A DNA stretch of 64,000 bases from Candidatus Portnoybacteria bacterium (GTDB taxonomy: Bacteria > Patescibacteriota > Minisyncoccia > Portnoybacterales > GWB1-42-6): NCBI GenBank assembly GCA_028688325.1, contig JAQTYI010000002.1:76379-140378 (forward strand), in the 5' to 3' direction. The notes below the pieces were generated by a model. The model was not told the origin of the DNA. It saw nothing but the letters and a program-made list of their open reading frames with translations, and did no database searches. Every line of letters starts with the position of its first letter. Position 1 is the first letter of the stretch. Positions 5,807 to 30,611 of the stretch are shown here, one piece after another. A program made the position numbers and the translations under genes.

Positions 5807-6373
5807 ATGATCAACTACAACGAACTCAAACCGGGTGTTTTTTTCGTGATGGACGGCGAACCCTATGAAGTCCTGGAATTCGGCTTTATGCGCATGCAGC
5901 AAAGAAAGCCGGTCGCCCAGACCAAGATCAAAAATATGCTCACCGGCAAGGTACTTAACCGCAATTTCCAGCACACCGACAGCTTCCAGGAAGCGGAGAT
6001 AGATTATAAAAAAGTTAAATTTTTATACGCCCACCGCGACAAATTCGTTTTCTGCGAGATGGATAATCCCTCGGCGCGCTTTGAGCTTTCCCAAGAAGCC
6101 ATCGGCGACAAGGCAAAATTTTTCAAACCCAATTCGGAAGTTGAGGTCGTGAAATTCGAAGATAAGCTCATCAATGTCGAGCTGCCCATAAAAATGCAGT
6201 TTAAGGTCATTGAAGCTCCCCCGTCCATTAAAGGCAACACTGCCCAGGGCGGCAACAAGGCCGTGAAAATCGAGACCGGCGCCATGATCAATGCGCCTCT
6301 CTTTGTTGAAGAAGGCGACATTATCGAGGTTAACACCCAAACGGGCGAATACTCCGGAAGAGTGAACAAATAG
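5807..6373 (+). CDS. efp: Elongation factor P.
   Basis: MINYNELKPGVFFVMDGEPYEVLEF ... three-domain EF-P architecture. The start is trimmed from the track ORF (5789) to the Met that aligns with EF-P N-termini. Confidence 0.9.
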   Translation: MINYNELKPGVFFVMDGEPYEVLEFGFMRMQQRKPVAQTKIKNMLTGKVLNRNFQHTDSFQEAEIDYKKVKFLYAHRDKFVFCEMDNPSARFELSQEAIGDKAKFFKPNSEVEVVKFEDKLINVELPIKMQFKVIEAPPSIKGNTAQGGNKAVKIETGAMINAPLFVEEGDIIEVNTQTGEYSGRVNK

Positions 6374-6483: not shown

Positions 6484-8472
6484 TCACAGTTCCGCCGTTT
6501 CCCCCGGCTTCAGGTCTTTCATATCACCCTGACTCGCCGGCTGATTTTTTTGTTCCGGCATTTTTTCCGCGGATCTGGCAACCCCGTAAAATTTATCGTC
6601 CCCGTAGAGCTTTTCGCCACGAGGCGCAGCGCCTGGCGCGGCCGGGCCCACCACTTCATTCAGCGCGCTGCGCAATTCCGACAGATTCGGGCCGGTCCGC
6701 GGTTTTTTGATCGCAAACCTGGCTGGCTCGACGCGAGGGGCAAACTCGGGCATCTTGCGGCCGGTCGCCTCGCTCAGAGAGATGGTCGGGCCGGTTTCTT
6801 TTATGACCGGTCCGCTCTCATTTCTCACTCTTTCGTTAAAACTTTGGCTCTCGCCAAAGCGCTGAGGTGCGCTTTGGCTAATATTTTTCTTCAACCCGTC
6901 AACCTTAGGCGCGCCGGGATTTGGCGCCTGACTGCGGACTTTTATTAAGCAGTCCTTGCAATAAACAGGCCTTACGCCGTCGGGCTTAAAATTCAATTCC
7001 ACTCGCTTGCCGCATTCGAAACATTTGTCAACATATATCGGCCCACCCGCAACGCCAGCAATGCGGCCTGCCTGGCGAAGGGAGCTAACCGGTTGTTTGG
7101 CCAGTTGCGGCCTTTCCGAAGCGCGGCCCTGCGTCTGAGGCAAAGAATATCTTTTTTCGCCTTCTTCGCTTTCTTCTTCCACAAATCCGCTCCAACGCGC
7201 AATCTTCTCTTCCACTTCTTTGCGCGATAAGCCCCCGTAGCGCTCGCGGGAAACTTTGATTATCTTTTCCCGGTGGCTTTTTTCCGTGCGCTCTATCGGC
7301 GCCAGAGTCGTGGCTGAAAACGGCCGCGAGGAAAAACCATTTATCATTAATTTTAAATAAACCTGGGCAAACCCCAAGCCAACCAGGTCGTCAGCGACAA
7401 ATTCCGGCGAAAATTCTTTTTCCAAAAACTCTGCGTCCTCCGCCCCCACGCGAAAAACTATTATCGTGCCCACATTGCCAAAAACCGCGTCGCGCACCCT
7501 GGTGCTGGTGTCTGTAGCCAGCTGCCCGATGTATTGGTGCGCTAAAACAAGATTCAAATGATACTTTCTGGCCTCGGATAAAATATTGGCGAAGCTGTCT
7601 GTGGCAAAATTTTGGAATTCGTCCACATACAGATAAAAATCTTTTCTTTCATTTTCCGGAACATTGACCCGCGACATGGCAGCCAGCTGAATCTTGGTTA
7701 TCATCATGGCGCCAAGCAGCGCCGAAGCGTCCTCGCCGACCTGGCCTTTGGATAAATTCAGTATCAGAACTTTTCCTTCGTCCATCACTTTTCGCGGATC
7801 AATGGTGGATTTGGTCTGGCCCACAATATTGCGAATCAGGGGATTCGTTAAAAATTGCCCGACTTTGTTTTGGATGGGAGAAATGGCCTCCACTTCAAAA
7901 TTACCCTTATATTTTGAAAATTCATCCACCCAAAAACTTTTGACCACCGGATCTTTAACTTTATCCATCACCTTGGCCCGGTATTCTTTGTCCACGAGCA
8001 GCCGCATGATGCCAAGAAGCGTGGCGCCCGGATATTCCAGCAGCGCCAAAACCGCGTTTCGCAAAACATATTCCAAGCGCGGCCCCCAACTCTCGGCCCA
8101 AATCTTCTTGAACACGCCGATGAGCCCTGAAGCCACCAAATGACGGTGTTCGGAATCAACTTGTTCCATAACATTAAAAGCGATGGGGAAATCCATATCC
8201 GCGGGATTGAAATAGATGACATCGTTAACACGGTTGGACGGCACGAAATCTATCATCTTTTCGGCAAAATCGCCATGCGGGTCCACGATCGCCAGGCCCT
8301 TGCCCGCCTGAATATCCTGCTTGGCCATATTTTCCAGCAATGTTGTTTTACCTGTACCGGTTTTTCCCACGATATAAACATGGCGCTGCCTGTCGCCGTT
8401 TTTTATGCCGAACTTGCGCTTTTGGCTGCGAAAATCGGTCTCGCCGATAGTTGTGATATATTCTTCTGCCAT
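6484..8472 (-). CDS. VirD4/TraD/TrwB-like type IV coupling-protein ATPase with a C-terminal C4 zinc ribbon and a GC-rich disordered tail.
   Basis: Walker A VGKTGTGKTTLLENM, Walker B-like LYVDEFQNF, TrwB_AAD-like ARKYHLNLVLAHQYIGQL. Zinc ribbon CFECGKRVELNFKPDGVRPVYCKDC. The last ~150 codons are markedly more GC-rich than the rest of the gene. Confidence 0.6.
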   Translation of the reverse strand: MAEEYITTIGETDFRSQKRKFGIKNGDRQRHVYIVGKTGTGKTTLLENMAKQDIQAGKGLAIVDPHGDFAEKMIDFVPSNRVNDVIYFNPADMDFPIAFNVMEQVDSEHRHLVASGLIGVFKKIWAESWGPRLEYVLRNAVLALLEYPGATLLGIMRLLVDKEYRAKVMDKVKDPVVKSFWVDEFSKYKGNFEVEAISPIQNKVGQFLTNPLIRNIVGQTKSTIDPRKVMDEGKVLILNLSKGQVGEDASALLGAMMITKIQLAAMSRVNVPENERKDFYLYVDEFQNFATDSFANILSEARKYHLNLVLAHQYIGQLATDTSTRVRDAVFGNVGTIIVFRVGAEDAEFLEKEFSPEFVADDLVGLGFAQVYLKLMINGFSSRPFSATTLAPIERTEKSHREKIIKVSRERYGGLSRKEVEEKIARWSGFVEEESEEGEKRYSLPQTQGRASERPQLAKQPVSSLRQAGRIAGVAGGPIYVDKCFECGKRVELNFKPDGVRPVYCKDCLIKVRSQAPNPGAPKVDGLKKNISQSAPQRFGESQSFNERVRNESGPVIKETGPTISLSEATGRKMPEFAPRVEPARFAIKKPRTGPNLSELRSALNEVVGPAAPGAAPRGEKLYGDDKFYGVARSAEKMPEQKNQPASQGDMKDLKPGETAEL

Positions 8473-21131: not shown

Positions 21132-22349
21132 TCAAAGTTTTTTCGTATAGAATAAAAACATTGACTCGTCTCCGCCGTCCTTGCTCTTTAAGTAAACATC
21201 CGGGCCAACACCATTTTCGCCGGATTGAAAACCATTTTTTTGGTATCTCTCCGCCTCGCCTTCCCTGTGTACAAGCATAACCTCTACATCAATATTTTTT
21301 CCGTAACCCTTTATTGCCTCTGCTAATCTATCAACAGATTCCGGACTGTCGGGATTTACCCCATCCCAATTAACCCATAAAATATTTTCATAAACGCCAA
21401 TAGAAGCTATACAAAAGTTTTCAATGTTCCCTTGCTTATCCCGCAAAACAAAACTGTGTGGTTCAAAAATAACCGGCTCTCCTTTCTTCTGTTGTAAAAA
21501 AAGATCCAAACAGACCCTAAACTCTTCCATTCTATCAGGAGAGTATATTTTTTCGGCTAATTTTAAAATTTCCTCCTTATTCTCAACGGCTATTTCTTCG
21601 GTCGGAATAAAAGGTTCTATCTGCTGATTACTTATATTGGAAAAATAAGAAAAGAGATCTCTTCCCGGCCCAAAATAATCCTTTACATTAAAACTCTGCT
21701 TGTAGCCAGCATTTTCGTATTTTCGGCGCGCCCTATCTTCACTTACCCAATCACTTGTTTCACTGGCAATTAAAGTACCGCCTCTCGCTTTGGCTAATTT
21801 TTCAGTCCAATTTAAAATGAAACCGCCCACTCCGGAGTTTTGGTATTTCTTACTAACAGCGTACCAACCGAGGCGAACGACCATATGATGCTTTTCTGGG
21901 TCTAAAAGATTCCTGGTACCAAGCCCGGCTGCATCTTGGATGTCGGTCGTAAAAATACCAGTCAGCGCAAATGGCTTATTCTCATCATCAGTAATAACAT
22001 AATACTCGGCTGTGTAAAGCGTTGGGTGGTCTAGTTTTTCTTGCTCAAGATAAGAATCAATTTCTTCTTTAAGATCCGGAAAAGAAACATCTTCACCCTC
22101 CCAAGAATCCTTTACTTCCCGAAATAGTTCTTCAGTAAAATTATCACTCATAGCAAAAACTCGAAACTTAATTGGCGTTTCTCCTTCCTTAGTTTTTTTT
22201 ATTATTTCGTGCTCGAATAAGGGCGCCTCGGGCCTCTCTTGGTTCTTCTTGAATTCTTCCCGGCTAACGACTCCTTGCAGAAATCTTTCTTTTTTTTGTG
22301 ATTCAGTTTCTTGATTATAAACCTGATTTTCAATTTTTTCTTTAATCAT
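21132..22349 (-). CDS. Hypothetical protein with a GNAT-like acyl-CoA N-acyltransferase core.
   Basis: VVRLGWYAVSKKYQNSGVGGFILNWTEKLAKARGG resembles the GNAT motif A (Q/RxxGxG/A); the rest is unassigned. Confidence 0.4.
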   Translation of the reverse strand: MIKEKIENQVYNQETESQKKERFLQGVVSREEFKKNQERPEAPLFEHEIIKKTKEGETPIKFRVFAMSDNFTEELFREVKDSWEGEDVSFPDLKEEIDSYLEQEKLDHPTLYTAEYYVITDDENKPFALTGIFTTDIQDAAGLGTRNLLDPEKHHMVVRLGWYAVSKKYQNSGVGGFILNWTEKLAKARGGTLIASETSDWVSEDRARRKYENAGYKQSFNVKDYFGPGRDLFSYFSNISNQQIEPFIPTEEIAVENKEEILKLAEKIYSPDRMEEFRVCLDLFLQQKKGEPVIFEPHSFVLRDKQGNIENFCIASIGVYENILWVNWDGVNPDSPESVDRLAEAIKGYGKNIDVEVMLVHREGEAERYQKNGFQSGENGVGPDVYLKSKDGGDESMFLFYTKKL

Positions 22350-22354
22350 AAAAA

Positions 22355-23140
22355 TTAATCATACAAATTAAATAAAGATTGGGCAGTTTTATAGAAAATG
22401 TTCTCTTTCTCTTTTTTGGTTAATTGCAGTCGGTTTATATAGCCAACATATCCTTTTTGGTCACACAGGTTCCAATCAGTCCCGAATAGAAGCTTATCAG
22501 TTGAGCCACCAAACAAAAGATAATCAGAAAATAGTCTTTTTAATAAAATTTTATCCTGCGGCTTAACAGAGTCGTATACCAGACCAGAACAATCTATGTA
22601 GACATTTTTATTTTTATAAGAAACCTCCGCCGCATCCTTTGCCCAAGGATTGCCAAAATGAGCAATCACGATTTTTAAGTTTGGCAGATCAGAAGCCAAA
22701 TCATCAAAAATCAAAGGATGTGCATATTTTAATTTTGCGTCTTTTGCTTGATTCCAAGTATCACCGCTATGAAAAATTGCCGGTTGATTGTATTTTTCCA
22801 ACAGATTCAAATAAGGCCTCAAGATTTTGTCACTGGGATAAAAATGCTCATAACCAGTGTAAAATTTTAAACCGTAAATCTTTTTACCGGCTAACCATTC
22901 TTCTATCTGCTCTGGCGTTGATCTATTCTGAGAAAGCGGAGAAATTGAAGCAATCGGGAAAAGAATTCCCTTGAACAATGAAGATTCGCACAACAGTTTC
23001 TCGTTGGCGCAATTAAACATTTCGCCGGCATAAACCAAGGCCTTTTTTATTTTAGCTTTTTTCATTGAAGCAACTATTTCTTGTGCTCCAAATTTCTTAT
23101 CGGGATAAAATTCAAGATGGGTATGGCAATCTATAATCAT
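22355..23140 (-). CDS. Metal-dependent TIM-barrel amidohydrolase (amidohydrolase_2-like).
   Basis: MIIDCHTHL ... HSGD ... IVIAHFG ... FGTDW motif series. Confidence 0.6.
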   Translation of the reverse strand: MIIDCHTHLEFYPDKKFGAQEIVASMKKAKIKKALVYAGEMFNCANEKLLCESSLFKGILFPIASISPLSQNRSTPEQIEEWLAGKKIYGLKFYTGYEHFYPSDKILRPYLNLLEKYNQPAIFHSGDTWNQAKDAKLKYAHPLIFDDLASDLPNLKIVIAHFGNPWAKDAAEVSYKNKNVYIDCSGLVYDSVKPQDKILLKRLFSDYLLFGGSTDKLLFGTDWNLCDQKGYVGYINRLQLTKKEKENIFYKTAQSLFNLYD

Positions 23141-24206: not shown

Positions 24207-24605
24207 TTAAAATAAATTTCTGGCTTTCATCATCGCGGCGAATTCCTTCGACGATTTGCCTTGGCTCATTTTTTCCATCGGGCAAAGGTCGTCGCCTTCT
24301 TTGTTTAAAATACACTTAACGATTTTTTGATATTCCACTTTCGCGCCGCCGCGCGCCAAGACGATAAGCGCCCCGCGGGAAATCAGCGGCGTCATCACCT
24401 TTTTCACTCCGCCATAAATTAGCAGCAGCGCGGCGGCGCGGCCCACGACTTTATCGAAAACCGTAGCTCCGCGCATCTGCGCTTTATGTTTTTTCAGGCA
24501 AAAAATCAGCGGCGCAAGCCGCTGTTTTTTTGATTTGTATATGACTTTTCCGCCTTTGATCAGCGCGAAAGCGAGTTTTTTGTCGGTGAAATATTTTAAA
24601 TCCAT
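24207..24605 (-). CDS. Hypothetical small protein.
   Basis: ORF MDLKYFTDKKLAFALIKGGKVIYKSK ..., lying immediately downstream of a MITE-like element; no firm family assignment. Confidence 0.35.
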   Translation of the reverse strand: MDLKYFTDKKLAFALIKGGKVIYKSKKQRLAPLIFCLKKHKAQMRGATVFDKVVGRAAALLLIYGGVKKVMTPLISRGALIVLARGGAKVEYQKIVKCILNKEGDDLCPMEKMSQGKSSKEFAAMMKARNLF

Positions 24606-24613
24606 TCCCAATT

Positions 24614-24733
24614 TGTCATCCCGGGCTCCCGCCTCGCCCGACGAACATGCCGGCCTCGCCGAGTCAGGCGGGCGAGTCGAGGCGGGTGACCCGGGATCCA
24701 GGTCCTGGATTCTCGCCTTCGCGGGAATGACAT
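24614..24733. mobile_element. MITE-like palindromic element, family A, intergenic copy.
   Basis: tgtcatcccgggc ... gacccgggatccaggtcctggattctcgcc ... gcgggaatgaca; fills the gap between two minus-strand genes. Confidence 0.7.
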
Positions 24734-25266
24734 TACTGTTTTATTTCGTTTCCTAAAAATTTCCGTAGAGATATAACCGCTACGGGCACCAGTAAAATCT
24801 GCAACGCAATCCCCCGCCAGCCATCTTTGACGGCGCTGACGACAAACGGCATAGCCGCCAATTTGGTCGGCAGCAAAATCAGGCCAGCAAACAAAACTGC
24901 CCGTCCCAAAATCAACGCGCCAACAAGCGACAGCCAGATATTTTTCATCTTCTGCTGGAAAAACCCCGCCAAGAAACCATAGGCGGCAATTTCGATGACG
25001 ACAAACGGCAAAACCATAGCCGGCGGCATGCCGGTCAAAGAGTAGCTAATAAGCGGCGTTAAAACGCCGATCGCCAAACCCGCTTGCCAACCAGCAAGCA
25101 AAGCGCCGGCGAGCACGAAAAAATGCATAGGCAGAAACAGCCGGCCGGCTGCCACGCCGCCAAGATAGTGCGCCAGCATCGGCGTCAGCACCGATAAGAC
25201 GGTAAACGCAAAAACAAAAATCGCGGTTTTTACTTTTGTTAAATGCAGAACTTGGAGATTCGTCAT
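24733..25266 (-). CDS. Polytopic membrane protein, ECF-transporter S-component-like.
   Basis: 177 aa, 5-6 predicted TM helices, no soluble domain. Confidence 0.4.
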   Translation of the reverse strand: MTNLQVLHLTKVKTAIFVFAFTVLSVLTPMLAHYLGGVAAGRLFLPMHFFVLAGALLAGWQAGLAIGVLTPLISYSLTGMPPAMVLPFVVIEIAAYGFLAGFFQQKMKNIWLSLVGALILGRAVLFAGLILLPTKLAAMPFVVSAVKDGWRGIALQILLVPVAVISLRKFLGNEIKQ

Positions 25267-25309: not shown

Positions 25310-26434
25310 TTATCTTTTTTCGTAATCCGGCCACCAATAAAGACCCTTATCTTCCTTTTTTAACTGACCCATAAATTCTTCTCGGCGCAGATACAATTTT
25401 TTCTGCACTCTGGGGTTGGCCTCAGAAAGAGCATAAGAAAAAAGAATGGGTGAAGCAATGGTGACATCAGCATAAACCACCACGGTGTTTTGCAGCTCGT
25501 TAGGATTGACTTTTCCCCAAGAAACAGCTTCCGAAGGGGTGGCGCCGGAAAGCCCGCCCCATTGCGGCGAATCCATGGTTATCTGAATAAAATAATCGTG
25601 TCCGCCCCGCTCAATGCCCAAGCACTCCCAAAGCATGGGCTGGGTTTGCATATAAAAATTTTTGGGGCTGCCGCCGCCCAAAATTATCGCCCCGTTCTGT
25701 TTGGCGCACATTACAATCGCGGCGGTTTCCAAAACATCAAGATTGGGATCGATGGTTAAATTGATGCCATCTGGCACATAAGAAGCCATATTCATGCCCA
25801 AAGTGGAATCGCCCGGCGAAGAGGTGTAAATGGGAATATTCAGTTTGGCCGCTTGCGCCAAAATGGAAATTTCCGGATTTTTAGCTTTGGCCAAAAGCTT
25901 GCGGCCGATATAATGGTGCAGTTCGCAAGAAGAAATGGCTCCTCTGGGCGCGTCTTTTTCAAAAGACGTGATCTGATCAAGAAATTTATCGGTTCTTATC
26001 AAAGTGTCGGCCCCCAGATAAGTATCGTAAATCCTCACAATCCCGTTTTTCCAAAGCGTCGCGTCATCTATATTAAAGACGCCTTTATGCAAATTCAAAC
26101 CCAGAGCAAAATGCATATCATGATAAAGATTGGCGCCGGTGGAGATAATGAAATCTATAAAACCCGCTTTCATCATGGAAACAATCATGCCCGACATGCC
26201 GGCCGGCGTGAGCGCTCCGGCCATGGTCAAACAAATAGTAGCCGAGTTTTGCGACTTTAACATTTTACGCGTCAATAATTGACAGGCCTCGCTCAAGCGG
26301 GCGGAATTATAGGATTGAAAATAACCGTCGACTAATTTTTTAATGCTTAGATTTTTTTTCAGCTCGCGTGCTTCTATTTTGCGTCCGCTCAAAAAATTCT
26401 GTCTTAGCGACTTTCGTTTTTTCTTTTTAGCCAT
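25310..26434 (-). CDS. Deoxyhypusine synthase-like protein (paralog 1).
   Basis: DHS-family pattern IISTGANLYHD, ILGGGSPKNFY and a C-terminal WGK; about 45% similar to paralog 2. Confidence 0.65.
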   Translation of the reverse strand: MAKKKKRKSLRQNFLSGRKIEARELKKNLSIKKLVDGYFQSYNSARLSEACQLLTRKMLKSQNSATICLTMAGALTPAGMSGMIVSMMKAGFIDFIISTGANLYHDMHFALGLNLHKGVFNIDDATLWKNGIVRIYDTYLGADTLIRTDKFLDQITSFEKDAPRGAISSCELHHYIGRKLLAKAKNPEISILAQAAKLNIPIYTSSPGDSTLGMNMASYVPDGINLTIDPNLDVLETAAIVMCAKQNGAIILGGGSPKNFYMQTQPMLWECLGIERGGHDYFIQITMDSPQWGGLSGATPSEAVSWGKVNPNELQNTVVVYADVTIASPILFSYALSEANPRVQKKLYLRREEFMGQLKKEDKGLYWWPDYEKR

Positions 26435-27269
26435 AAATATAGCATATCAGCTTATAGATTAATTTAGCCACTAAAAAATCCGGCGCGTGAAGGCCTTTTA
26501 TCGGCGCCAATTCCACGAAGTCCGCGCCGATAATGGTTTTTTTGGCGCAAACCGCCCGCAAAATATTTATCGCTTCATACCAGTCCAGCCCGCCGGGCTC
26601 GGGCGTGCCGGTTGACGGCATTATGCCACAGTCAAACACATCAACATCAAACGATATATAAACTTTATTCTTGAGGCCCTCTACTATTTCTTCAATTTGC
26701 CATTTCTTTTTATCTTTGGCCCAAAAAGTTTTTATGCGGCTTTGATTTTTCTCCCAAAAATTAAGCTCGTCGTTTTCGTTGCTGATGTTTCTGATTCCCA
26801 CCTGCACTAAATTTATCCCGAGATAATCGAGGGACCGGCGCATAGCCGCGGCGTGAGAATATTTTTTTCCCAAATATCCGTCGCGTAGATCGGCGTGCGC
26901 GTCAAATTGCAAGATGCTAAAATCATCAAAGCCGGATTTTTTGTATTGGCCAATAATGAATTGTGTTATGCTGTGTTCTCCGCCTAGAATTATCGGTAAT
27001 TTTTTATTTTTAAGCGAATCGCCGACAATCGCTTCCATCTTTTTAATATTCTTCGGTTCCTTAACCGTCTCGATGGCGACTTTTTTATATGTCTCTTGCC
27101 AAAGCTCTTCGTCAAAAAGTTCCACTTGCGAGCTGGCTTTAATTATGGCTCCAGGGCCCTTATCCGCCCCGCCGCCATAAGTCGTCGTCGCTTCAAAACC
27201 AAAAGGCACAATTATAACTTGCGCCTCCCGCCCGAGCCCTTCTTTGATATCTAAGAAATTTTTTGCCAC
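26427..27269 (-). CDS. speB: Agmatinase (arginase/ureohydrolase family).
   Basis: ILGGEHSIT, FDAHADL, SFDVDVFDCG ... TGTPEPGGL manganese-binding motifs. Confidence 0.8.
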   Translation of the reverse strand: MAKNFLDIKEGLGREAQVIIVPFGFEATTTYGGGADKGPGAIIKASSQVELFDEELWQETYKKVAIETVKEPKNIKKMEAIVGDSLKNKKLPIILGGEHSITQFIIGQYKKSGFDDFSILQFDAHADLRDGYLGKKYSHAAAMRRSLDYLGINLVQVGIRNISNENDELNFWEKNQSRIKTFWAKDKKKWQIEEIVEGLKNKVYISFDVDVFDCGIMPSTGTPEPGGLDWYEAINILRAVCAKKTIIGADFVELAPIKGLHAPDFLVAKLIYKLICYIYG

Positions 27270-27279
27270 AAAAAATAAA

Positions 27280-28449
27280 TTACAATTTGCTATTTTTCAA
27301 TAAGCCGTTTTTCTTTTTTCCTTTGTCAAAATACGCTTTCAGCGTATGTTTGCGCAACGCTTTGTCCAAAAGCGCCACCGCTTCTTCTCGCTGATCGAAC
27401 AAGCGCCTCGGCTCCTTCTCCAGTCCTTCCTGCATCAATGCGTGAACAATAAAAGGAAAAACAGCTGTGACATCGGATAAAACATATTGCGAATTTTTCA
27501 CGCATTCCTCCGATGTCTTGCCCCAAGTATGGGCTTCTGAGGCAGTACAAGAAGACAGACCGCCGTTTTGCACATGCGCGTCGCAAATCTGCACATCGGT
27601 GTCATAGCCGCCGACATCCAAGTCGCAAATTTGCGCCAGATACGGCTCCGGCTGCAACGAATAATTTTTTGGCACGCCCCCGCCTAAAATTATGATGGAA
27701 AGTTTTTTGCTGAATTTATTCTTGGCCAAATAATGATATGCGCCGAATTCATGAATATCGTCTTCCAGGTTAATTCCGAAATGGTATTTATGCCCCAGCT
27801 TTTTTTTCAAAAACGCTAAATTCAAAAAAATGGAGCCGTCCTGCGGGGCGCCGCAAAATATCGGCACGCTATTGCGATAGGCCTGCACCAGAATGCTGCG
27901 GTTCAAATCGGCGCGCTTGAATCGCCTGTTACCAAACCGCGCCAGATGCCTGCCCAACAGATAATGAAATTCCGTTGTAGTCATTTGTTTGGCAAAATCC
28001 GGCCGCCGCACCAAGTCCACCACCAAATTATCCGTTTCCCAAAGATCGTCTTCCGGAAACCCCGTATCATATATCCTGGTCCAGCCGGCCTTGCGCAGCT
28101 TTATGTCGCATTGATTCGGATTCACCTCATACCAATTATCGCTTTCCTGCCGCTGCAGATCATGATAAAGATTGGCGCCGGTGGTCGTGATGATATCTAC
28201 CAAGCCGGATTTTATCAGCGGGATGATGCAGGAAACGCCAAAATCCGCCGGTGTCATCGCGCCCGACAACGCCAAAACAATAGTATGATCTTTTTCGATC
28301 ATCCGCCTGATTATCTGGTAGGCATTTTTCACTTCGCGCCCCACATAGGCGCCAAACGCCTTCTCAAGGAGTTGCGCGGTGGTTTCATTGCCCGTGATGG
28401 GTTCGGACAACACTCTTTTGCCCACCAGCCGCTTGGTTAAATGTTTCAT
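27280..28449 (-). CDS. Deoxyhypusine synthase-like protein (paralog 2).
   Basis: ITTTGANLYHD, ILGGGVPKNY, WGKT; DHS family. Confidence 0.65.
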   Translation of the reverse strand: MKHLTKRLVGKRVLSEPITGNETTAQLLEKAFGAYVGREVKNAYQIIRRMIEKDHTIVLALSGAMTPADFGVSCIIPLIKSGLVDIITTTGANLYHDLQRQESDNWYEVNPNQCDIKLRKAGWTRIYDTGFPEDDLWETDNLVVDLVRRPDFAKQMTTTEFHYLLGRHLARFGNRRFKRADLNRSILVQAYRNSVPIFCGAPQDGSIFLNLAFLKKKLGHKYHFGINLEDDIHEFGAYHYLAKNKFSKKLSIIILGGGVPKNYSLQPEPYLAQICDLDVGGYDTDVQICDAHVQNGGLSSCTASEAHTWGKTSEECVKNSQYVLSDVTAVFPFIVHALMQEGLEKEPRRLFDQREEAVALLDKALRKHTLKAYFDKGKKKNGLLKNSKL

Positions 28450-28484
28450 TCTACAAACAAGCCCCTCCGGCTATATTTAGTTTT

Positions 28485-29075
28485 TTAGCTGTGGCCGTTG
28501 CCATTTGTTTCTTTTTGCTCCAAATAGCTTGGCAAAATGAAAACTGCCGCGGCCAGCACAGTAGTCCATGACCCGTCTTTATTGCCAATGGCCGATTGAG
28601 TAATATTGGTCGTTTTAACGATTTTGCCGCTCATCTTATACAAGTCCTCCCGTTCGTCCCAGGCGGTATTGGGATCAAATTCTATGCCGAGCGTTGAAGC
28701 CAACATGGAAGCGGCCAAATCCTCGGCATATTCGCCCGCTTTTTGGTCGGTCTCGCCGAAAGAATGATGCTCTGAAAGATAACCGTATTGCTGTTCTCCC
28801 TCCGCCGGCACGGCGCAGCCGACCGAAGCAGCAATCAAGCGGTTGGCTTCATTGGTGGCGTTGCGGCTCATAACGCAATAGATTATTTGCCCGGGATGAA
28901 TTAATTTTAAGCCGTCTTCTTTGGAAATGCGCTTGCAGCCCGGCGGAAATATGCTGGAAACCGTCACTAAATTGAAAGGAGCGATGCCGGCGTCGCGCAA
29001 GGCCATTTCAAAAGAAGTCAGATATTCTTTATGAACTCCCACCCCTTTTGTAAAAAATACTCTGCTCGGAACCAT
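28485..29075 (-). CDS. pdaD: Pyruvoyl-dependent arginine decarboxylase.
   Basis: [13 protein letters not shown] ... [25 protein letters not shown]: PdaD signature including the SS cleavage site. Confidence 0.8.
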
Positions 29076-29094: not shown

Positions 29095-29493
29095 TTAATG
29101 ATTAGGATCTCGTTTTTTAAAGCGCGCCAGCGAAGAAAGCCCGAATTTCTTTTTTATGCTTCGCGCGCCGCGGATGAAAATCGTTTCTTTTTTTGTTTTG
29201 AATTTTTTTATTTCCTGCTCCAATTCGTTCCGCACTTCGTCAATAGCGGTATACAGGTCTTCCCTTTCCGATTCAGCCCGGAACATTCTGCCGCCAGCGC
29301 TCAAATTAATTTCCGCCCGGAAAATATCGCCTCTTTTGTGGCGGCCAGTCGTGCGCCCGACCTCCACTTCGCATTTTATCGTCTCTTCGCTAAAATTGCC
29401 CAAAAACTTCCCCAGGCCATTGATTTTTCTTTGAAGATAATCTTCGATGCTTGGAGTTAAAATAAATTTTTTGCTTTTGAAAATAATTTTCAT
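29095..29493 (-). CDS. hpf: Ribosome hibernation promoting factor / RaiA family.
   Basis: MKIIFKSKKFILTPSIEDY ... TGRHKRGDIFRAEINL motif. Confidence 0.75.
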   Translation of the reverse strand: MKIIFKSKKFILTPSIEDYLQRKINGLGKFLGNFSEETIKCEVEVGRTTGRHKRGDIFRAEINLSAGGRMFRAESEREDLYTAIDEVRNELEQEIKKFKTKKETIFIRGARSIKKKFGLSSLARFKKRDPNH

Positions 29494-29675: not shown

Positions 29676-30611
29676 TTAGAGCCCGAGATATCTGACTTCT
29701 TCCTCCAGTTCTATTCCATATTTTTCTTTCACGGATTTTTTTATTATCACTATCAATTCCAAAACATCTTTGGCTTTGGCGCCGCCGGTGTTGATCATAT
29801 AGTTGGCGTGGCCTTCCCAAATTTTGGCGCCGCCCTTTTGCGTTCCCGCCAAACCGCATTGGTCTATCAGAAATCCAACGCCCAATTTTCCCTCGCGCAC
29901 GCGCGAAGCAAGTTCTGGATGATCTTTCAGCAACTCATCTTGCTCCCCTTTTGTCCGATAATTTTTAAAAATGCAGCCGGCCGAAGGGAACGGCGGAGAA
30001 TGCTTGACGACTTTTTTGGCTTCGTTCAAAATCTCGTCTATTTCAGTTTGCTCTTTTTTTATAAAATTCAGATTAATTTCCAAAATTATTTCGCCTGTTT
30101 TTTTGAAGCGGCTGTGCCGGTAATCAAAACCGCATTCTGCCTTGCTTAATTTTTTAATATTTAAATCCGCGTCTAAAATCGTAACTTCTTCAACTATCCG
30201 CGAGATATCCTGGCCCAAGCGCCCCGCGTTGCCGCATACCGCTCCGCCGACGGTGCCCGGAATGCCAAAGCCCCATTCGGCGCCGCTGAAGCCGTCTTTG
30301 GCGGTTTCCACGATAAGTTTATTAAATAGCGCGCCCGCACCGCAAACCGCGACAAGATTGTCGCCTTCTCTTTGATATTCGATCTCCGACATTTTGCATT
30401 TTATGACAAGCCCCCTAAAACCCTCATCGCTCGCCAGCAAATTGCTGCCTCCGCCCAAAATAAAAAACAGCAAGGAATTCTCTTTGGCCCATTTTATCGC
30501 TTCTATCAACTCTTGGGCGGTTTTTACCGCCGCAAAATATCTGGCCGGCCCGCCGATGCGGAAAGTGGTATGGGAAGCTAAGCTAATGTTTTCTTGCAAA
30601 TTATTAATCAT
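29676..30611 (-). CDS. murB: UDP-N-acetylenolpyruvoylglucosamine reductase.
   Basis: FRIGGPARYF ... ILGGGSNLL FAD-binding motif and a C-terminal MurB domain. Confidence 0.85.
   Translation of the reverse strand: MINNLQENISLASHTTFRIGGPARYFAAVKTAQELIEAIKWAKENSLLFFILGGGSNLLASDEGFRGLVIKCKMSEIEYQREGDNLVAVCGAGALFNKLIVETAKDGFSGAEWGFGIPGTVGGAVCGNAGRLGQDISRIVEEVTILDADLNIKKLSKAECGFDYRHSRFKKTGEIILEINLNFIKKEQTEIDEILNEAKKVVKHSPPFPSAGCIFKNYRTKGEQDELLKDHPELASRVREGKLGVGFLIDQCGLAGTQKGGAKIWEGHANYMINTGGAKAKDVLELIVIIKKSVKEKYGIELEEEVRYLGL

Follow-up and report, generated by a model that had tools for sequence, protein, structure and literature searches.

Four adjacent, tightly packed open reading frames (ORFs) lie on the minus strand of a 64,000-nucleotide stretch of a Candidatus Portnoybacteria genome (contig JAQTYI010000002.1, positions 76,379 to 140,378; hereafter the window, numbered from its first letter). 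Between positions 25310 and 29075 they encode, in the order pdaD, B, speB, A, a pyruvoyl-dependent arginine decarboxylase (PdaD), an agmatinase-family ureohydrolase (SpeB), and two paralogs of the deoxyhypusine synthase (DHS) superfamily, here called A and B. Very probably this block is an agmatine-dependent (diagmatine) homospermidine operon, in which two anciently diverged SpeY-type synthases would carry out the same step. We infer this chemistry, and likewise the equivalence of A and B, from homology to the characterised SpeY/CdmS enzymes. The position, strand and identity of the four genes, as given in an earlier annotation of the window (the original prediction), are confirmed by the ORF listing and by profile searches, and the window does contain the EF-P gene that was reported with them.

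In the proposed pathway PdaD would decarboxylate arginine to agmatine. A DHS homologue of the SpeY type, using nicotinamide adenine dinucleotide (NAD) and a catalytic lysine, would oxidize one agmatine; the 4-guanidinobutyl group, held as an enzyme imine, would then be passed to the amine of a second agmatine, producing N1,N9-bis(guanidino)homospermidine (G44G, also known as caldomycin or diagmatine). In the third step a SpeB-type ureohydrolase would take off two ureas, leaving homospermidine. The operon would supply two synthases for the second step: A and B most likely catalyse the same reaction, since each is the sole synthase of the same syntenic block in sister lineages, and the lineage of the window retains both.

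Gene set and predicted pathway

PdaD scores above the curated cutoffs of its equivalog families (NF009064, 219 bits, cutoff 207; TIGR00286, 119 bits, cutoff 107) and matches PF01862 with E = 1e-62. Its Ser40-Ser41 pair, part of a VSSI motif that is invariant in 7 orthologues, is what we take, by analogy with the M. jannaschii enzyme MJ0316, to be the self-cleavage site at which the pyruvoyl group is formed. A sequence search of the PDB with PdaD gave no match at E<=1e-3. SpeB passes the agmatinase equivalog TIGR01230 (192 bits, cutoff 174), matches PF00491 (E = 2e-58), carries the binuclear-metal motifs of an arginase-fold ureohydrolase (GGEHS, DAHAD and SFDVDVFD), and finds its best PDB match in the agmatine ureohydrolase 3pzl (4e-29). 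In the context of this operon it is predicted to be a G44G (diagmatine) ureohydrolase, yielding homospermidine: the SpeB homologues associated with SpeY are G44G-specific ureohydrolases, inactive on agmatine, although the paper describing them (PMC13625781) gives no sequence determinants for this diagmatine ureohydrolase specificity.

The gene set as a whole corresponds to a published bacterial route to homospermidine. The CdmS/SpeY enzyme of Thermus thermophilus (TTHA1570) couples two agmatines to G44G (Sci Rep 2024, PMC10981699), SpeYs from six further diverse bacteria also make G44G (Li et al., J Biol Chem 2026, PMC13625781), and speY-speB clusters have previously been reported in genomes of the Candidate Phyla Radiation (CPR) and of DPANN (PMC10407285). 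The closest likeness is to the characterised pylADC-speY-speB cluster of Caldilinea aerophila (PMC13625781), in which a bacterium likewise combines a pyruvoyl arginine decarboxylase of archaeal type, a DHS-homologue synthase and an agmatinase-family ureohydrolase, and for which the chemistry, from arginine through agmatine and G44G to homospermidine, equals that predicted for the window. The difference is that the window has two synthase genes, of different clades, flanking speB; there is no mention of two speY genes in one cluster in PMC10981699, PMC13625781 or PMC10407285. Given this match, the archaeal hypusination machinery invoked by the original prediction is not needed to account for the cluster, while its view of the DHS-like proteins as homospermidine or other polyamine synthases, rather than hypusination enzymes, is borne out by the gene set as well as by the clade and the active-site signature described below.

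Phylogeny of the two synthases

Both A and B belong to the DHS superfamily and fold (PF01916; E = 3e-76 for A, over profile positions 10-287 of 288, and E = 4e-58 for B), and they are 31% identical to each other over 361 residues. AlphaFold (AF2) models reach a predicted local distance difference test score of 86.9 for B and 85.4 for A, and the model of B has a template modelling score of 0.85 to the P. horikoshii DHS (7cmc); no bacterial SpeY structure was present among the PDB sequence or fold matches. A passes the family NF001980, 'homospermidine biosynthesis protein', with 460 bits against a cutoff of 450. The SpeY equivalog NF002699 is reached by neither protein (177 bits for A and 135 for B, cutoff 500), and the DHS equivalog models all remain below cutoff as well (for example TIGR00321, with 214 bits for A and 149 for B against 304).

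A neighbour-joining tree with 200 bootstraps was calculated by means of a custom distance routine, and included members of the A and B clades, human DHS (whose sequence was checked against the PDB), two archaeal DHS structures, a Haloferax plasmid DHS, and two SpeY proxies that pass NF002699. One proxy is a Sphingomonas gene located beside an ornithine decarboxylase (ODC)-like gene, the arrangement also seen in the characterised R. wittichii; the other comes from a Trichormus plasmid. Clade A and clade B are each recovered with a bootstrap of 100, the two join with a bootstrap of 97, and together with the SpeY proxies they are set apart from the human and archaeal DHSs with a bootstrap of 98. 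Thus, the paralogs are monophyletic with the SpeY-type bacterial DHS homologues, and lie outside the archaeal/eukaryotic DHS group. A phylogeny of this kind had been proposed with the original prediction, and its answer is divided: A and B fall within a bacterial SpeY-like superclade, as sister clades to the NF002699 family rather than nested inside this characterised-type group. Besides their position in the tree, the paralogs share with the proxies several active-site substitutions (see below), and differ from them by an identity of only ~27-28% and by a C-terminal extension of ~30-45 residues in A and B.

By their sequences, both paralogs are bacterial SpeY-like proteins, not DHS proper, and represent two old lineages. 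A recent tandem duplication was considered as the origin of the pair and rejected, because the two proteins are only 31% identical and each resembles proteins from other phyla more closely than it does its partner; the earlier description of them as tandem paralogs is replaced here by membership in two ancient clades.

Active sites

The active-site positions of A, B and the proxies were compared, in the numbering of human DHS, in an alignment of 27 clade members. A and B, like every one of the 27 members, have the catalytic K329 (in a WGK motif), the NAD-binding GGG282-284 and D238, and W327, E323 and K287 are also retained in A and B. Common to A, B and the SpeY proxies are the replacements H288N, Y176L and N292Q, and the change of A132G133 to GA. 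D243 is replaced by M in A and by L in B, and D316 by L in both. Accordingly, the residues of bona fide DHSs (the His288 base, the acidic Asp243 and, in eukaryotes, Asp316) are found in neither paralog: archaeal and eukaryotic DHSs (human 1RLZ, P. horikoshii 7CMC) have the fold, the NAD motif and the catalytic lysine in common with A and B, whereas the identity to them is 22-27% and His288, Tyr176, Asn292 and Asp243 are all replaced.

The resemblance is instead to the Thermus enzyme, which we compared with the paralogs on the basis of its published residues. CdmS is NAD-dependent, with K299 and E293 corresponding to human K329 and E323, and its pocket is distinguished from that of human DHS by Phe204 and Leu286, hydrophobic residues at the positions of human Asp243 and Asp316, with Glu293 retained (PMC10981699). 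The same combination of hydrophobic residues at 243 and 316 and a conserved Glu323 occurs in A (M, L, E) and in B (L, L, E). The two systems differ in the decarboxylase, since Thermus uses a SpeA dependent on pyridoxal phosphate (PLP) and the window a PdaD.

Two diverged paralogs of the DHS family in a single genome are also known from Trypanosoma brucei, and the trypanosomatid DHS is described as a heterotetramer of paralogs in the work of Afanador et al. 2018, as cited in PMC10981699. In the trypanosome each paralog is impaired in catalysis, and the two complement one another; those of the window retain every catalytic and NAD-binding residue, and each occurs alone in relatives. A and B thus show none of the complementary losses of such residues that would point to a pseudoenzyme pair. 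A pseudoenzyme or heterotetramer was rejected as the main explanation, as both proteins keep all of these residues and each can be found by itself.

Distribution of A and B

In Parcubacteria the block recurs as murB-(hpf)-pdaD-[A or B or B..A]-speB-ECFS-DUF1893-...-secA, where ECFS is a gene for a membrane protein resembling the S component of energy-coupling factor (ECF) transporters. Both paralogs, with B before speB and A after it, are present in the window and in L006, L086 and L088. Only B is found in L005 (where it is 93% identical to B of the window), L168, L169 and L173, and only A in L085 (a Nealsonbacteria locus), L087 and L174, where it occupies the slot otherwise held by B. In the window it is B that fills the usual slot, flanked by pdaD and speB, with A placed after speB. 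The B-only locus L173 and the A-only locus L174 are equidistant from the window, with identities of 66% and 66% for PdaD and of 42% and 41% for MurB. The occurrence of either paralog alone in the same block, in conjunction with the shared SpeY-type signature, suggests that each is probably sufficient by itself, and judged in this manner A and B are probably isofunctional. The two distinct aminobutyl-transfer activities that the original prediction read from the presence of two paralogs find no support in this pattern. An additional scan of metagenomes with a PdaD alignment contributed only L088 to this set, since 79/80 of the loci retrieved had a PdaD without a nearby DHS-like gene.

Additional genes interrupt some of these clusters: an ATP-grasp GARS_A/PurD-like gene between pdaD and B (L173, 6702-7988), an M29 peptidase gene and a GARS_A gene between A and speB (L087, 9105-12565), and an S-adenosylmethionine methyltransferase gene between speB and A (L086, 7072-7998). 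These insertions may encode polyamine-modifying enzymes.

Clade B extends well beyond the Parcubacteria. A scan of species-representative genomes based on the B-specific motifs GGGVPKNY and EAHTWGKT recovered B-type stretches, at least 591 in number, above all from Myxococcota but also from Patescibacteria, WOR-3, Bipolaricaulota, Micrarchaeota and Planctomycetota; a tblastn search of phage genomes with B gave no match. In Micrarchaeota speB, B and pdaD stand together, with B as the sole DHS-like gene of the cluster, and in 16 loci of Myxococcaceae a gene for an arginine decarboxylase of the SpeA type is found no more than a few kb from B. Myxococcus makes homospermidine lipids. The association expected of a SpeY/CdmS gene, with an arginine decarboxylase and with an agmatinase or AIH partner, is thus found in the window, in ten syntenic Parcubacteria loci, in the Micrarchaeota loci, and in the linkage to SpeA of the Myxococcaceae. 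With regard to the taxonomic labels, the B-type protein of three WOR-3 metagenome-assembled genomes (MAGs; L002, L003, L007) is 76% identical to B of the window and nested among the clade B proteins of Patescibacteria, a position that suggests either horizontal transfer or mis-binning, and two contigs labelled 'MAG: Klebsiella pneumoniae' (L029 and L048) carry Myxococcota-like B-type genes, accompanied in L029 by SpeA; these are evidently mislabelled bins.

Redundancy or division of labour

In the four loci that have both paralogs, the proportion of synonymous differences (pS) is ~0.7, and thus saturated, while the proportion of nonsynonymous differences (pN) ranges from 0.14 to 0.17 in A and from 0.07 to 0.13 in B: low pN at saturated synonymous sites indicates that both genes have long been kept by purifying selection. 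This joint retention is also what would be seen if A and B were non-redundant in polyamine synthesis, by virtue of a different specificity, of a different regulation or kinetics, or of assembly into a mixed tetramer, for which the trypanosomatid heterotetramer, as reported in PMC10981699, offers a precedent. In the specificity version one enzyme would make G44G, and the other would add a guanidinobutyl or aminobutyl unit or use putrescine or homospermidine, generating a longer or mixed polyamine; the fixed, clade-specific differences near the pocket (W in A versus N in B at 313, MD versus DA at 308/309, F versus Y at 289, A/T versus E/D at 173) could be read in this sense. We regard non-redundancy as rather unlikely. 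Among relatives, each paralog can be the sole DHS-like gene of this pdaD-speB block, A and B do not differ in any residue that defines SpeY-type chemistry, neither has lost catalytic or NAD-binding residues as the trypanosome pair has, and the active-site positions listed above are the same in copies from genomes with both paralogs and in copies from single-copy genomes.

Several points nevertheless weigh against our preferred interpretation of A and B as two SpeY-type synthases of the same step. The pocket differences just listed are consistent between the clades, and the long joint retention, which pure redundancy would not predict, hints at some division of labour, which it fits better than transient redundancy. 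With 11 syntenic loci the sample is small, and the A-only and B-only states were read at these loci. B falls below every curated family cutoff: its best NCBIfam match is NF001980, with 283 bits against 450, and the B-type proteins of Myxococcus, Archangium, Planctomycetota, Bipolaricaulota and Micrarchaeota score in the same range (277-296 bits). Finally, the SpeY proxies of the tree were picked by NCBIfam score and gene context and stand in for assayed SpeYs, so that within this analysis neither clade A nor clade B is tied to an assayed protein.

EF-P and the question of hypusination

The original prediction had left room for a modification directed at EF-P, in which one of the DHS-like proteins would transfer an aminobutyl or guanidinobutyl group onto a lysine of EF-P, or of another protein, in a bacterial analogue of deoxyhypusination. 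The EF-P of the window gives a gap-free alignment with EF-Ps whose structures are known. Its beta3-omega-beta4 loop (residues 28-36) is non-canonical, M-R-M-Q-Q-R-K-P, with neither a PGKG nor an SGRN tip: Gln32 aligns with the modified lysine of B. subtilis (K32) and of E. coli (K34), and a lysine follows at position 34. The motif RMQQRKPVAQ is invariant in 110/120 of the nearest EF-P clusters, which come from Parcubacteria, are 72-97% identical to the window protein and include Portnoybacteria and Azambacteria; we found no description of an RMQQRKP-type loop or of a CPR EF-P in the EF-P papers that were searched. A Pfam scan of 29 proteins of the window brought up no EpmA-, EarP- or YmfI-like protein.

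An unusual and invariant loop, the lack of the known modification genes among these proteins, and an operon that begins with the gene of a ribosome-associated factor (hpf) are features that a protein-directed activity might explain. We nonetheless consider such an activity very improbable. The loop is lineage-wide in Parcubacteria, and therefore not tied to the two-paralog state, and its aligned tip residue is a glutamine, not a lysine; the substrate of a bona fide DHS, an a/eIF5A with a lysine in the hypusine loop, is absent from this bacterium, which has a bacterial EF-P. In more than 170 loci A and B are always accompanied by polyamine genes (pdaD, speB, SpeA) and never by efp. Moreover, both paralogs group with SpeY and not with DHS, and carry the SpeY/CdmS substitutions, including the loss of His288 and Asp243. 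A 2026 review finds no evidence connecting bacterial DHS orthologues to EF-P (PMC12856214).

The inspection of the loop, which had been suggested as a check, has thus revealed a tip that is not of the standard Lys/Arg type, and no observation that favours a role in EF-P modification. The outcome that was to speak against the original prediction, in which both paralogs would lie within the characterised homospermidine synthases and EF-P would have a standard loop with EpmA/EarP genes, has come about by half: the paralogs are SpeY-like, and the loop is not standard. Nothing links A or B to EF-P, and the locus lends no support to bacterial hypusination.

Transcription unit and neighboring genes

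The spacing of the four genes of the block is operon-like: 35 nt separate pdaD from B, 10 nt separate B from speB, and speB overlaps A by 8 nt. The hpf gene lies 19 nt upstream of pdaD, and precedes pdaD also in L005, L006, L086, L087 and L088. Between hpf and murB there is a gap of 182 nt, AT-rich and with promoter-like matches, from which we conclude that the transcription unit probably begins at hpf; hpf would then be its first gene, with no role in the pathway. The original prediction had extended the unit into both hpf and murB: co-transcription of hpf is plausible, and that of murB is uncertain in view of the gap.

Downstream, the ECFS gene comes after speB or A in L005, L086, L169, L173 and L174, and the DUF1893 gene is kept downstream of the cluster in L005, L086, L168, L169, L173 and L174. 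The presence of these two genes may reflect a functional link, for example substrate uptake, or mere conservation of gene order. A perfect sigma-70 consensus occurs beyond the DUF1893 gene, ahead of the next gene. If the DUF1893 ORF is taken to start at a TTG codon, as it was called, its 5' part contains a strong hairpin, rich in GC and bordered by runs of T on both strands, that resembles a bidirectional terminator. Beyond an Amidohydro_2 gene, and thus two genes downstream of the operon, there is an ORF of 405 aa with only a weak acetyltransferase match, and L086 has an unannotated gene of 403 aa at the equivalent position. On the strand opposite to efp, and just downstream of it, lies a gene for a TrwB/TraG-like type IV coupling protein, which is unusual for a small CPR genome. 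The coordinates of all these features are collected in Table 1.

Table 1. Position, strand and family matches of the features of the window discussed in the text.
Feature	Positions	Strand	Length and matches
pdaD, pyruvoyl-dependent arginine decarboxylase	28485-29075	-	196 aa; PF01862, NF009064
DHS-like B, SpeY-like synthase of clade B	27280-28449	-	389 aa; PF01916
speB, agmatinase-family ureohydrolase	26427-27269	-	280 aa, GTG start; TIGR01230, PF00491
DHS-like A, SpeY-like synthase of clade A	25310-26434	-	374 aa; PF01916, NF001980
hpf, ribosome hibernation factor	29095-29493	-	TIGR00741, 62 bits vs cutoff 41
murB	29676-30611		upstream of hpf
ECF-transporter S-component-like membrane protein (ECFS)	24733-25266	-	PF12822, 32 bits
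DUF1893/TM1506 protein	24207-24611	-	PF08973, E=1e-30
GC-rich hairpin	24507-24524		T-runs on both strands
Amidohydro_2 gene	22355-23140		
ORF with weak GNAT acetyltransferase match	21132-22349	-	405 aa; PF13508, 26.7 bits
EF-P	5807-6373	+	PF09285, PF01132, PF08207
TrwB/TraG-like type IV coupling protein	6484-8472	-	662 aa; HerA-like ATPase domain

Significance

The pathway itself is of an already known kind, encoded by an ordinary bacterial operon, and is not a new kind of system. What the locus adds is modest: an operon that combines two old SpeY clades, a clean pattern of in-place replacement between them among CPR relatives, and a clade B that is widespread and uncurated. There is a small chance that A and B are kept together as non-equivalent enzymes, because of a different substrate or product (for instance a longer guanidino-polyamine or a tetraamine) or as partners in a mixed tetramer, in which case the polyamine repertoire of this CPR lineage would exceed homospermidine. 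The extreme version of this non-equivalence, with one paralog acting on the R-M-Q-Q-R-K-P loop of the Parcubacteria EF-P, is much less likely.

With the proposed pathway, a CPR bacterium with a minimal genome joins those organisms in which homospermidine is formed through agmatine and diagmatine, a recently defined route that requires only a pyruvoyl enzyme and NAD, and neither PLP nor S-adenosylmethionine. The occupation of one operon slot by a member of either old SpeY clade, or by both, is a clear instance of the replacement in place of one enzyme lineage by another. Clade B, with its at least 591 matches, including the sampled Myxococcaceae, and with neither a curated model nor an identified assayed member, is a candidate target for the characterisation of SpeY.

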